NCBI GenBank assembly: GCA_963700695.1
Contig: CAVOYO010000019.1
Location: forward strand, 8,238-72,237
DNA: 64,000 nucleotides
Reading direction: 5' to 3'
DNA from: an uncultured Acidobacteriota bacterium
Lineage (GTDB): Bacteria; Acidobacteriota; Vicinamibacteria; Fen-336
Under the pieces are notes generated by a model. The model saw only the letters and a list, made by a program, of their open reading frames with translations. It did no database searches and had not been told where the DNA came from. Each line of letters starts with the position of its first letter. Within the stretch, counting starts at the first letter, position 1. Made by a program: the position numbers and the translations under genes. Below are positions 23,296 to 64,000 of this stretch, piece after piece.

Positions 23296-23665
23296 CCCCG
23301 ATCATTCAATAACCCCCCTCCCTATCCCTCCCCACGTAGGGGGAGGGAAAGGCTTGAGATAGGCCATGGACACCCGCGTGTCCCCAGGGAAGGGACACGC
23401 GGGCGGGCCTGGGCCTGGTGGCCGGTCGCACCTGTTGATCGACCCCCGAGGGTATCCCTCCCCACGTAGGGGGCTCGGGGGACGCGACGTCGAGCTCGCG
23501 GGACGAGCGTCGACCCCGAGTGCAAGTCGCGACGCGCAGCGTCGCTTCCGACAGGCCGGAAATCCTTGGCATAGGCCACGTACACCCGCGTGTCCCCAGG
23601 GAAGGGACACGCGGGCGAGCCGAGGCCTGGTGCGCAGTTGCACTTGTTCATCGACCCCCCCCCGG
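23296..23665. repeat. Modular palindromic intergenic repeat, family 1, copy A (contains an empty IS target site)
   Basis: Modules ccctatccctccccacgtagggggaggg, 2x cccgcgtgtccccagggaagggacacgcggg and ggggacgcgacgtcgagc...gacgagcgtcgaccccgag recur across the window. Confidence 0.9.
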
Positions 23666-39005: not shown

Positions 39006-39145
39006 GATTGAGCAAGTGCGGGTGGTCACCAGGCCTAGGCTCGCCCGCGTGTCCCTTCCCTGGGGACACGCGGGTGTACGGGGCCTATCTCGGGCATTTC
39101 CCTCCCCTCCGTGGGGAGGGATAGGGTGGGGGGTCGATGAACGAT
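39006..39145. repeat. Family 1 repeat, copy D (inverted)
   Basis: caccaggcctaggctcgcccgcgtgtcccttccctggggacacgcggg...gtggggagggatagggtggggggtcgatgaacg. Confidence 0.88.
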
Positions 39146-45086: not shown

Positions 45087-45502
45087 CCCCCCGATCGTTC
45101 AATGACCCCCCACCCTATCCCTCCCCACGTAGGGGGAGGGGAAGGCTTGAGATAGGCCATGGACACACCGCGTGTCCTCAGGGAAAGGACACGCGGGCGA
45201 GCCTGGGCCTGGTGGCCAGCCGCACGTGGTCATCGAGCCCGCAGCCTGATCTTCCCCACGTAGGGGGCTCGGGGGACGCGACGTCGAGCTTGCGAGACGA
45301 GCGTCGACCCCGAGTGTAGGTTGCGACGCGCCAGCGTCGCCTCCTGCAGGCTGGCGAGCGCCGGGGGCCAGGGCTCCAGGGCCGCTCCTGAGCCCTCTAT
45401 CGTTCAATGACCCCCCTGCCTATCCCTCCCCACGTGGGGGGAGGGAAAGGCCTGAGATAGGTCCCGTGCGTCCGCATGTCCCCAGGGAAGGGACATGCGG
45501 AC
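45087..45502. repeat. Family 1 repeat, copy F (tandem, multi-module)
   Basis: Near copy of 23296-23555, followed by a second head module with palindrome variant tccgcatgtccccagggaagggacatgcgga. Confidence 0.9.
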
Positions 45503-60874: not shown

Positions 60875-61229
60875 GGCTCACCGAAGCCGTTACGTATCCT
60901 TTGAGGTGCGTGACGACTTCGATGACGTACCGCTGCCCCACCGAGGACCACGACCTGGCCTGGACCCCCTTGGGTCGCTCAGGTCGCCCGCTCGCGGGGA
61001 CGCTCGTCTCGGGCGTCGGCCTCTTCAAAGGAAGCAGCGCCCTCGCTCGCTCGATTCGCCCGCACGGGCTAACGGACATATCGCCCAGCGAAGCATTCAC
61101 GATGCGGAGCTCGACGCCCCGCTTAGCGGGCGCCTTCGCGCCCAGGCTCGATCCTTGTCGTGGTCCCTTGCCCCTCCGACCAGGAGCGGCCGTATCCAGA
61201 CTCGGCGTGGCTGCCGAGGCCCCGGGGCG

Positions 61230-61440
61230 TGGGGGGTCGATGAACAGGTGCGGTTGGCCACCAGGCCTAGGCTCGCCCGCGTGTCCTCTCCTTGGGGACA
61301 CGCGGGTGTACGGGGCCTATCTTGGACCTCCCCGGCCTGTCGGAGGCGACGCTCGCGCGTCGCAACTTACACTCGGGGTCGACGCTCGTCTCGCAAGCTC
61401 GACTTCGCGTCCCCCAAGCCCCCTACGTGGGGAGGGTTAG
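61230..61440. repeat. Family 1 repeat, copy G (inverted), left part; interrupted by the IS
   Basis: ggggggtcgatgaacagg...cccgcgtgtcctctccttggggacacgcggg...cccctacgtggggagggttAG. Confidence 0.9.
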
Positions 61441-61535
61441 TCAAGATGGGATGACCGGCTCCGATCGCGAGTTCGTAGGTTACGCTCCGATCGGCTTGAC
61501 CTGTAGCGCAGAGCTACAAACGAAAGGAGCCGGTC

Positions 61536-62670
61536 ATGGACAAGCATATCCGACACGTCGGGTTTGATGTGGACTCGGAGAAGATCGTGGTGGCGGTGGC
61601 GGAGCCTGGGGGTGAGGTCCGGTCAGTGGGAGCGGTCCCCCACAGTCGTGAGTCGGTTCGGCGGCTCGTGAAGAAGCTGGGGCCGGCGAAGCGGCTGCGG
61701 GTCTGCTACGAGGCGGGTCCTCATGGCTATGGGCTGTACTGGCAGCTGAGGGAGCTCGGAGTGCACTGCGACGTGGTGGCCCCGACGCTGGTGCCGGTCA
61801 AGGCCGGGGATCGTGTGAAGACGAACCGGCGGGACGCGTTGAAGCTGGCGCGGAGCTACCGGAGCGGGGACCTGACGCCGGTGTGGGTACCGGACGCGGA
61901 GCAGGAGGCCCTCCGAGACCTGGTGCGGGCGCGTGAGGTGGCGAAGAAGGATCAGCTGCGGGCGCGGCACCGGCTGGGGAAGTTTCTGCTGCGCCGCGGG
62001 CTGAGGGCTGGGGCGGGGGTGAAGAACTGGACGACGACACACCTGGCCTGGGTGCGGACGCTGCGCTTCGAGCAGCCGGCGCAGGAGGCGACGTTTGTGG
62101 ATTACCTGCACGAGGTGGAGCACGCGGCGGCGAGGATCGAGCGGCTGGAGAGGGCGATCGACCAGGCGGTGGAGAGTCTCTCGGAGGACAGAAGGGCCCT
62201 GGTGGCGGGGCTGCAGGCGTTGCGGGGGATCAAGCAGATCACGGCGGCGACGATCGTGGCGGAGCTGGGCGTGGTGTCCCGCTTCGAGCGGCCGAAGCTG
62301 CTGATGGGCTACAGCGGCATGGTCTCGAGCGAGGACTCTACGGGCGAGCCGGATCCGGCGCTTTGGGATCACCAAGACGGGCAACGCCCACCTGAGGCGG
62401 GTCGGCGGTGAGGCGGCCTGGGCCTACCAGTACCGGCCAGCGATGTCGCCGGCTCTGAAGAAGCGGCAGGAAGGGCTGAGCGAAGAGGTCAAGGAGATCG
62501 CTTGGAGGGCCCAGCACCGGCTGTGCTCCCGGTACCGACGGCTGCTGGCGAGGGGCAAGCTCAAGCAGGAGGCGATCACGGCGGTGGGCCGGGAGCTTTG
62601 GGGTTTCATCTGGGCGGTCGGGATGCAGGTGGAGAAGGAGCAGCGGCTGCGGCGCGGGCGCGCCGCCTGA
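61536..62670 (+). CDS. IS110-family DEDD recombinase/transposase (one +1 indel at ~62349)
   Basis: VGFDVD, VCYEAG, VKTNRRDA, YSGMVSSEDSTG; removing one C gives ERIRRFGITKTGNAHLRR...AITAVGREL; aaggag RBS. Confidence 0.92.
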
Positions 62671-62721
62671 GACGAACGGGGAAACGCAACGTAGTCACAA
62701 GGAAAAGAGGACCGGGACCTT

Positions 62722-62931
62722 TGGAGAGGAGCAGGCGGTGGTCGAGGGGCCTACGGAATGGAGGATCCTCGTTCTCCCTATGTGGCAGGGCCAATACCCT
62801 GATCCACGAAGTTAGTCCGAGGCAGCTCCCGACGGATCACGACCATGACGGCGGGCCCCAGGCTCGATCCGCGAATATCAGAGTGATCAACCGTCGAAAC
62901 AGCCGCCTCGACCGCCTCCTCCTCCGCTCCA
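62722..62931 (+). ncRNA. Predicted bridge RNA/seekRNA of the IS1111-type element
   Basis: Enclosing stem 62722-62747 / 62906-62931; target loop 62760-62829 (ttctccctat, gaagttagtc); donor loop 62831-62895 (gaccatgacg, gaatatcaga); loop strands match the target and donor sequences. Confidence 0.8.
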
Positions 62932-62954
62932 GGGGACACCCCCTACCTCGGGGC

Positions 62955-62960
62955 TTGACA
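62955..62960 (+). promoter_or_regulatory. -35 box (TTGACA) of the circle-junction promoter
   Basis: On circularisation: TTGACA-cggtcatcccatatcagt (18 nt)-CAAGAT, upstream of the transposase. Confidence 0.6.
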
Positions 62961-62975
62961 CGGTCATCCCATATC

Positions 62976-63020
62976 AGGGAGGGGGGTTATTGAACGATCA
63001 GGGTGGGGGGTCGATGAATG
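62976..63020. repeat. Family 1 repeat, copy G, right part
   Basis: AGggaggggggttattgaacgatc is the reverse complement of 23300-23323 with one mismatch. Confidence 0.88.
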
Positions 63021-63155
63021 ATTGGGGCCGCCTCGCCCCGAGACCTCGTAGCTCCCCTTGTGGAGAAATGCAACATCTTGTGTAGGCTTCTTGATCCATC
63101 TCCGGGGCGGGTGCTACTTTATGGGGTCCAGGATGGCCGTGGAGGCGGGAACAGG

Positions 63156-64000
63156 GTGCAGCGAGTCAATCAGCGGCAAGGGTTCCTCCTCTCGGCGATC
63201 GTTCACCTGACCCTGCTGATGATAGTGCTGGCCCAGCCGCCATCGACGCGCGCGCCCGAGGACCTCTCCGAGCTCGAGAGGAGGGAGGTCGTGTTCCTTC
63301 CGCCGGCGGAGGTGCTGCGCCAGCTCTTCCCCGCGCCCGCGGCCCCGGCGCGATCCCGCCCGGCCGTTCCCACCCCACCGCCCCAGTCCCAGGACCCGAC
63401 CAAGAAGGACCGGATCAGCATCGGGCCCCCGTCCGAGCTGCGGAGCACGGGACCGCTCATCCTCAGGCGGGAGGACGACCTCACCAAGGTGCCCAAGGGG
63501 CAGCCCGAGCCGCCGCCGCGACCCGCCCCGACCCCCGTCGCGCCCACTCCGGGACCGGCGGTGGCCCAACGTGGGGGAGAGACTCCGGAGACAAGGGGTC
63601 GGGAAGGGCTGCGACTCCCCCCGGGGCTCCTCGGGCCGTCGCCCCCGCACGGGGATGAGGGGACACGCCGGCGCCCGGAGGCATCGGCTCGTCCGTCGAC
63701 GGAGCGGTGGACGAGGTGGCGCGCCGATCCCGGGACACGCGCCTGGGGCTGCCCACAGGGACCGGAGAGAACCAGTACGGGCTCCGCTTCGACCCTCAGG
63801 GGGCGGACTTCACCCTGTGGATGAACGACTTCAAGAACCAGGTCTACCGTAACTGGAACGTGCCCCAGGCCGTGTTCCTGGGGTACGGAGGGCCATGTCG
63901 ACTTCGAGTTCACCGTTGAGAGGGACGGATCGATGTCGGCGCTTCGGATGCTGAAGACGTCCGGGACGGATTCGCTGGATCGGGCGGCACGAAACGCGCT
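63156..64000 (+). CDS. TonB-family energy transducer (indels near 63690 and 63890; truncated at the window end)
   Basis: TM helix with SAIVH (SxxxH), Pro-rich linker, FDPQGADFTLWM..FKNQVYRNW.VP, ...KTSGTDSLDRAA. Confidence 0.75.

Follow-up and report, generated by a model that had tools for sequence, protein, structure and literature searches.

We examined a 64,000-nucleotide stretch of DNA from an uncultured Acidobacteriota bacterium (assembly GCA_963700695.1, contig CAVOYO010000019.1, positions 8,238 to 72,237 of the forward strand), which we refer to as the window, and focused on the insertion sequence that lies near its right end. We conclude, with a probability of about 0.87, that this is an RNA-guided element of the IS1111 family, belonging to the ISSso6/ISEc45 subgroup, and that its two guides direct insertion to one allele of a dispersed, G-rich repeat. 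The first-pass annotation, made from the letters of the window alone, had described an IS1111-type element inserted into a palindromic repeat. Sequence comparisons suggest that the palindrome does not confer the specificity, which appears to reside in a pair of short RNA guides located in the non-coding region at the 3' end of the element.

The insertion sequence, 1.5 kb in length, is bounded on either side by the dinucleotide AG, and its body (61441-62975, + strand, as are all features of the element given below) runs from TCAAG to CATATC. It is 1535 bp long in the window copy and 1534 bp in intact copies, with junctions that are identical among copies, and 1536-1537 bp when one AG is counted. 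The left half of the target, part of a G-rich repeat head (61420-61440), ends as ...CCCCTACGTGGGGAGGGTTAG at 61440, with the core AG at 61439-61440, and the same sequence stands to the left of all nine copies described below. Inside the left core is a terminal extension, TCAAG (61441-61445; AGTCAAG, or 7 nt, if the core is counted), followed 5 nt from the AG by a subterminal inverted repeat, ATGGGATGACCG (61446-61457). This repeat is a perfect 12 bp, and its complement, CGGTCATCCCAT, lies at 62961-62972, 3 nt inside the right AG, from which it is separated by a terminal extension of ATC (62973-62975). Next, at 62976-62999, come the second AG of the core (62976-77) and, as the right half of the target, GGAGGGGGGTTATTGAACGATC. 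When the two flanks are joined with one AG, they form a 43-mer with only 2 mismatches relative to the reverse complement of 23300-23342, an intact and unoccupied head on the minus strand of the same window. Thus, the element boundaries, the AG core, the 5- and 3-nt offsets of the inverted repeats, the reconstructed empty site, and the lack of target duplication beyond the 2-nt core are all as the first-pass annotation described them. The non-coding sequence is 95 nt long upstream of the transposase gene (61441-61535) versus 305 nt downstream from it (62671-62975).

The genome assembly (6.2 Mb in 31 contigs, 69% G+C, 75% complete) contains nine near-full copies of the element, identified by BLAST of the element against the genome. 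They are on contigs C19, C10, C2, C30 (two copies), C24, C25, C26, and C3, and there is an additional 501-bp internal fragment on C12. Pairwise identity is 98.0%-99.8% (28 pairs from eight copies, omitting the truncated C3 copy). All nine share a single orientation and a single insertion point, namely this AG in the G-rich repeat head; if the C12 fragment is counted, 10 of 10 lie within the head. In every case the left junction reads ...GGGGAGGG[A/T]TAG and the right junction AG^GG[A/T]GGGGGGT... (here and below, ^ marks the junction of element and target, or the point at which the element splits it). Past about 20-40 bp the flanks diverge, and there are two kinds of left module. Given that the flanks differ outside of about 40 bp, the occupied loci must be separate sites. 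Tabulation of the flanks of every copy, a check that the first-pass annotation had proposed, therefore turned up no copy in unrelated sequence and none with other end positions.

Two of these loci are damaged. The C3 copy (G000:C3:175829-177304; L119:1385-2860), which lies within an array of three repeat units, is cut after about element position 1476, where a CCGCC microhomology joins it to the hairpin module of the following unit; it is missing the right inverted repeat and half of the closing stem of the RNA described below. The truncation point coincides with a segment near the 3' end of the element (GGGGACAC...CCCCTAC...GGGG). We considered whether this segment is akin to the repeat, and it is too short to be distinguished from a chance resemblance. 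The C12 fragment (G000:C12:438450-438948; L122:1437-1935) comprises element positions 496-995, with both ends missing, and is flanked by a left head (...GGGGAGGGAT) and a right half (AG^GGAGGGGGG), both of which are normal.

The repeat head has the form GGGG-A-GGG-[A/T]TA-GGG-[A/T]-GGGGGG, with the insertion point at TAG^GG. Allowing up to four mismatches, a 32-mer that includes the site is found 89 times in the genome, and a tighter pattern over the core identifies 110 unoccupied heads. Four unoccupied heads lie in the window itself, at approximately 39104-39135 (+), 45104-45135 (-), 45409-45440 (-), and 23311-23342 (-), as well as a partial head, GGGGGGTCGATGAAC, at about 61241-61256, upstream of the element. 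On the minus strand of contig C15 (reverse-complement offsets 201262-201818), five heads exactly 131 bp apart constitute a tandem array of whole mosaic units. The first-pass description of the target as palindromic holds for part of the repeat family: the region around the intact head (23296-23352) folds into a stem of 9 bp or more at -11.5 kcal/mol. It does not hold for four of the nine occupied sites, the window's among them, where the left module has no long hairpin arm. The left flank in the window folds at only -4.6 kcal/mol, and 160 of 200 shuffled sequences are as stable. Because of these two observations, we consider the palindrome to be dispensable.

Downstream from the transposase gene is a structured non-coding RNA domain (62721-62932, 212 nt), a candidate seekRNA or bridge RNA on the basis of its fold and covariation. 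Its minimum free energy is -104.9 kcal/mol (z -5.16), and none of 200 shuffles is as stable. RNAalifold applied to 35 relatives predicts 55 pairs, 26 of which show compensatory changes. In an independent count, 95.9% of cells are paired, versus 32%-43% when the partners are slid, and the covariation score is 0.298, versus 0.04-0.09 for slid partners (0 of 500 shuffles reach the observed value). In the predicted architecture, a 23-bp closing stem surrounds two domains. In the first, the constant stems GGAG/CUCC and CCUCG/CGAGG close an internal loop that has a covarying hairpin at its center and a guide on either side. The guide on the 5' side (T guide, TTCTCCCTAT, 62772-62781) is complementary to the top-strand target sequence TAG^GGAG, plus two G-U pairs. 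The guide on the 3' side (B guide, GTTAG then TC, 62811-62817) equals the top strand of the left flank and core plus the first two bases of the element, and therefore pairs with the bottom strand; the left-flank bases that it reads are G61436 and T61437, then T61438. Judged by sequence and covariation, the order of the guides and their overlap at the core follow the pattern reported for IS1111-type seekRNAs, in which the top-strand guide lies 5' of the bottom-strand guide and the two matches overlap at the core (Siddiquee et al., PMC11187229). According to Durrant et al., the bridge RNA of IS1111 elements lies in the right end. On the 3' side of the second loop, ATATCAG (62875-62881) is identical to the right end plus core, and may serve as the donor (right-end) guide.

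The clearest support for the guide assignments comes from relatives in other genomes. A search of 61 related genomes with the element yielded some match in 19, including long matches with 76%-77% identity in three other genera (L002, L003, and L004). A protein-based scan of one genome per species identified 392 relatives, and the 80 loci kept are mostly from Acidobacteriota, with some from Gemmatimonadota and Steroidobacteraceae. Every locus with located ends has a common geometry, nTAG^TCAnn followed by ATGG... on the left, and the inverted repeat followed by ATC^AG on the right. The subterminal inverted repeats keep their position, the right extension is always ATC, and T precedes the AG core in all 55 left flanks read. 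Between a constant CCTCG and a constant TATG, there is a variable stretch of 7-8 nt whose reverse complement equals the bases directly to the right of the AG (guide/flank examples are CGTCTGC/CAGA, ATTGACC/GTCAA, AAAACAC/TGTTT, and CCAGGGC/CCCTG). A second variable stretch, located directly before a constant TAGTC, equals the left flank. For a quantitative comparison, 83 loci were examined, of which 69 had both anchors (the other 14 were dropped), representing 59 distinct sites. The T guide matches the right flank at a mean of 4.58 of 6 bases. With permuted pairings the value is 2.21 (maximum 2.78), and 0 of 5000 permutations reach the observed value. Numbering flank bases outward from the core, with L for left and R for right, the B guide matches L2 (two bases left of the core) in 48 of 55 cases and L3 in 33 of 55, again with 0 of 5000 permutations reaching the observed values. 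The match to L4 through L6 is near chance.

One further genome of the same family, from another genus (G031), has element ends that are about 90% identical to those studied here, situated at contig ends (L005:1498-1609, L021:1-136). The flanks there, ...GCGAGTAG^ and ^AATCGACTG, are unrelated to those in the window, which implies recent retargeting; the guide region falls outside of the assembled contigs.

Within the genome studied, occupancy follows the guides in a graded manner. The guides specify GTTAG^GGAG, then two G-U pairs. There are three unoccupied occurrences of the exact motif, GTTAGGGAG, all of them in repeat heads. We classified sites by their bases at two polymorphic positions, L2 and R3 (three bases to the right of the core). 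Six of the nine occupied sites have T at L2, and the other three have A. Eight occupied sites entered the table, the C3 copy being left out because its right flank is lost. The (T, A) class has four occupied and five empty sites, the (T, T) class two and nine, the (A, A) class two and 28, and the (A, T) class none and 59. Thus, occupancy drops with guide match, from 4/9 to 2/11, 2/30, and 0/59 (44%, 18%, 7%, and 0%). In one-sided Fisher tests, P is 0.0012 (L2=T), 0.020 (R3=A), and 0.001 (the two combined). The element prefers a minority allele of the repeat. All copies lie in repeat heads because, in this genome, GTTAG^GGAG is confined to the minority allele of a G-rich head that is present in about 120 copies.

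The guide is itself polymorphic. The base at 62775, which pairs with R3, is T in seven copies and A in two, and the A form is also present in contigs of one public sequencing run. The A form would pair with the commoner allele, R3=T, and one of the A-form copies does occupy a (T, T) site, to which it is a perfect fit.

The transposase gene (61536-62670) encodes a 377-amino acid protein when intact. Six of the nine copies have an open frame of 389 codons, with the 377-amino acid protein starting at ATG. In the window copy, an extra base near 62345 shifts the frame, leaving two open reading frames, one for the N-terminal 291 amino acids (61536-62411) and the other, in a different frame and reaching to 62670, for the C-terminal part. 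The extra base is missing from contigs of four public runs from four studies, and the frameshift may reflect an error of assembly. In Pfam, the intact protein has matches to PF01548 (residues 8-151) and PF02371 (residues 226-298) and, among NCBIfam models, to NF033542, "IS110 family RNA-guided transposase" (214 bits relative to a cut-off of 140). Matches to solved structures are weak (IS621, E 1e-5; ISCro4, E 1e-7). The nearest named elements are found on enterobacterial plasmids: ISEc45 (45.5% amino acid identity) and ISSso6 (43.3%), each over 95%-96% of the protein. A tblastn search against plasmids (E<=1) showed no IS1111A, IS5075, or IS4321 feature among 60 of 1749 records. Other IS110-family transposase genes in the genome are broken or partial fragments (G000:C2:232327-232977, C2:172923-173165, and C23:141403-141606); no further intact gene of this family was found in the genome.

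As restated by Siddiquee et al. (PMC11187229) from Partridge and Hall (2003), IS1111 elements carry perfect or nearly perfect subterminal inverted repeats, about 11-13 bp in length. Their left extension measures 7 (or 6) bp and their right one 3 bp, the longer of the two non-coding regions is downstream, and one specific target is entered in one orientation without duplication beyond the shared core; the transposase, of 330-350 amino acids, is akin to that of IS1111 along its whole length. We find 12-bp inverted repeats, extensions of 7 and 3 nt, the longer non-coding region downstream, and a single target and orientation without duplication in nine of nine copies, in agreement with the first-pass assignment to the IS1111 type. 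The C-terminal motif, G-M-V-S-x4-T-G, fits the "S(t)G" form, with Ser where Pro is usual. The protein, at 377 amino acids, is longer than the range given, and the link to IS1111 runs via ISSso6 and ISEc45 and not via IS1111A. The source data for Fig. 8b of Siddiquee et al. (2024; PMC11187229) label ISSso6 as "IS1111" with 801 unique insertion events, and place it at about 18%-25% identity to the main IS1111 cluster and 43%-49% within its own subgroup. The IS110 group proper is described as having a long left end with the bridge RNA upstream of the gene, and inverted repeats that are absent or 2-3 bp long; the present element has a short left end, 12-bp inverted repeats, and its RNA domain downstream from the gene. 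We conclude that the element is an unnamed new member of the ISSso6/ISEc45 subgroup of the IS1111 family in a Vicinamibacteria-like Acidobacteriota host, and not a new kind of system.

The course of transposition that we propose is as follows. The element would excise as a circle, with its ends joined through one AG. This would bring a candidate -35 box, TTGACA (62955-62960), to face a candidate -10 box, CAAGAT (61442-61447), over the circle junction with a spacer of 18 nt, and the resulting promoter would read the transposase gene and then the downstream non-coding region. The downstream transcript would adopt a fold of about 210 nt that contains two internal loops. In the first of these, the 5' guide, UUCUCCCUA, would pair with the target top strand (TAG plus GGAG, with two G-U pairs), and the 3' guide, GUUAG, would pair with the bottom strand of the left flank and core, after which the recombinase would exchange strands at AG. 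We also considered whether the TTGAC near the right end could instead be a left-end guide, and rejected this idea. TTGAC is present in 45 of 45 aligned right ends, and the -35 box is the better reading because TTGAC stays constant while left ends (TCAnn then ATGG) vary. Nor could the 5' side of the second loop, which reads GACCATGA in this element and GATTATG in the majority of relatives, be assigned as a left-end guide, given that it shows no covariation with the variable bases 4-5 of the left extension.

A number of observations weigh against the interpretation that we favor, and should be stated. The base beside the core is mismatched in 10 of the 59 sites of relatives. In most of these cases the genome also holds a sister element with a fitting guide, which suggests action in trans. 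Similarly, in the genome studied here, the A-form copy on C26 occupies an (A, A) site, and the T-form copy on C10 occupies a (T, T) site, so has R3=T; so loose a correspondence between copies and sites would be expected of RNAs that act in trans. ATATCAG shows no variation in 35 of 35 aligned relatives and neither does the right end of the element, leaving no covariation by which a donor role could be judged, and a left-end guide, sought among the RNA segments of relatives, was not found. Rfam has no match at E<=1 over 61000-63400. Contigs of the four public runs contain no joint that corresponds to the circle junction, although contigs cannot show its absence, and no unambiguous empty form of the window locus. 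Two joints in these contigs that skip the element (61438 to 63000 and 61436 to 63001) end in a second run of G at 63000 and resemble empty repeat heads from elsewhere, and one joint that goes back (62985 to 61241) represents a further copy and, after it, the adjoining repeat module. Finally, the frame is broken in three of nine copies (by a one-base insertion each in the window copy and the C25 copy and by several indels in the C26 copy), the C3 copy has lost its right end, and the transposase has an unusual active site.

In this protein, the tetrad aligned to ISCro4 is D11, E59, N97, and D100, with N97 (codon at 61824-61826 in the window copy) opposite the Asp of the KTD motif, and the loop is T269-G270. 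This is not the canonical DEDD tetrad with a Ser-Gly loop (D11/E60/D102/D105 plus S241 in IS621). Asn is present at the third position in all nine copies, in the motif KTNRRDA, which also occurs in L002, L003, L004, L031, and L032 (the ends, flanks, and guides of L031 and L032 are as in L003 and L002, respectively). In comparison, there are 79 matches to KTDRRDA among relatives' loci, ISSso6 included, and ISEc45 reads KNDHRDA. Among the 120 best protein clusters (P0001-P0120; 77%-96% identity, 365-389 amino acids), 119 have Asn and one has Tyr, and Asn appears in three of the 19 motif rows listed from a supplementary table of Durrant et al. Our literature search found nothing on asparagine in the IS1111 DEDD tetrad or on IS110 insertion sequences of Vicinamibacteria.

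It could thus be argued that the copies are relics, the Asn having killed the enzyme, and that they either spread before the change or were mobilized by a helper acting in trans from outside of the 75%-complete assembly. Mutation of D102 in IS621 abolishes recombination (Hiraizumi et al., PMC11208158), and the broken frames, the truncated copy, and the lack of any other intact IS110-family gene in the genome are in keeping with this idea. We consider it unlikely, however. All nine copies, 98%-99.8% identical, already carry Asn, so the burst must have come after the change. Asn has been kept in nearly all of the closest clusters, as well as in the elements with 76%-77% identity from three other genera, whose guides fit their own flanks. 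Moreover, the D102 of IS621 is reported to form a hydrogen bond with G242 of the serine loop and the metal to be held by D11, E60, and D105 (PMC11208158), and Asn could fill that bonding role. Asn that is this conserved, in a lineage that has grown to nine copies after acquiring it, is probably functional. A second alternative, which we rate as quite improbable, is that the target is picked by the structure of the repeat DNA (a hairpin or G-quadruplex) or by direct reading by the protein, with only a minor role for RNA; a stem-loop gate of a comparable sort has been reported for ISPpu10 (bioRxiv 10.64898/2026.03.19.712850). In all nine cases the insertion point does fall among four successive G-tracts and 4 nt beyond a GC-rich inverted repeat, the intact head is predicted to fold stably, as given above, and a loosened motif, [AT]TAGGG[AT]G, has 65 sites outside of repeats, none of which is occupied. 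Yet the four occupied sites without the long left arm, and a window flank that folds no better than most shuffles, are difficult to reconcile with recognition of a hairpin, and relatives insert into unrelated, non-repeat flanks that follow their guides. If G is required at L3 and R5, 74 of the 86 genomic matches are already in repeats, and for this reason sequence alone explains the bias toward repeats. A hairpin or G-quadruplex gate is thus unsupported, but the numbers are small and it may have some added effect.

It is also conceivable that blocks consisting of repeat plus element were spread by homologous recombination or segmental duplication, given that the target is a dispersed repeat, and so a possible recombination substrate, and that tandem repeat arrays exist. 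This we find hardly credible. Identity between loci ends within about 20-40 bp of both junctions, the left modules are of two kinds, and which bases stand at the two polymorphic flank positions does not depend on the copy in residence. Shared flanks were not seen to be longer between occupied loci than between empty heads, and in the genomes of relatives the junctions have the same geometry at sites that are unique and outside of repeats.

Comparison with known systems places the element in context. It resembles ISSso6 and ISEc45 in its amino acid sequence (43%-45% identity) and subterminal inverted repeats. In ISSso6, which we read directly, these repeats are 13-14 bp long, and the right end consists of TTTGAC, an inverted repeat that overlaps ATC at its end, and AG, an arrangement like that seen here (TTGAC, inverted repeat, ATC, AG). 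ISSso6 also has a long non-coding region downstream that shares a 28-nt RNA segment, CCGCGAATATCAGnGTGATnnACCGTCG, with the element at 89% identity. The element differs from both in its host phylum (Acidobacteriota rather than Enterobacteria and alpha-Proteobacteria), in its target and guides, in the tetrad motif (KTN, versus KTD in ISSso6 and KND in ISEc45), and in having Thr before the conserved Gly where both of the others have Ser. The first-pass annotation had drawn a parallel with REP-targeting IS110 elements, which is apt: like ISPa11 (reported to target REP; PMC11187229), ISPpu9, ISPpu10, and IS621, the element is specific for site and orientation, and enters a dispersed, GC-rich intergenic repeat beside a stem without target duplication. 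The repeat family is nevertheless unrelated, being the G-rich head of mosaic hairpin repeats in Acidobacteria, and the stem is dispensable in four of nine sites. IS621 and ISPpu10 are described as members of the IS110 group with the RNA at the left end, whereas here it is downstream. As in the IS621 bridge RNA and ISEc11 seekRNA (PMC11208160, PMC11208158, PMC11187229), a structured RNA is predicted from the non-coding end of the element. One of its internal loops has a short guide on either side of a hairpin; these two match opposite strands of the target and overlap at the core, and a second loop matches the element's own end. Unlike in IS621, the top-strand guide comes first (the IS1111 order), and the core is AG preceded by T, versus CT.

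The known picture of the family is unchanged by these results, and we regard the element as a clean but ordinary example, with points of modest interest in its graded occupancy, guide polymorphism, and clade-wide D-E-N-D tetrad. Insertion of the element is one route by which mosaic repeat arrays in Acidobacteria become disrupted. Having occupied sites and about 110 graded near-targets in a single genome provides a clean natural data set for an RNA-guided recombinase, from which the in vivo cost of single guide mismatches can be read as occupancy. The relatives represent dozens of natural retargetings on a constant RNA scaffold, which is useful for the design of bridge or seek guides in the IS1111 branch. 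On balance, we lean slightly toward the view that an apparently mobile clade, comprising at least 120 protein clusters at 90% identity from several Acidobacteriota genera, runs on D-E-N-D plus Thr-Gly, and that the polymorphism at 62775 is a case of natural retargeting within one genome. If so, retargeting by U/A at 62775 would mirror the A/T of the repeat, shifting the element from a rare allele to the commonest one. The clade-wide Asn is a ready-made test of the role of the third tetrad residue and, if the clade is active, the third "catalytic" Asp of bridge recombinases would be a replaceable hydrogen-bond donor to the nucleophile loop.

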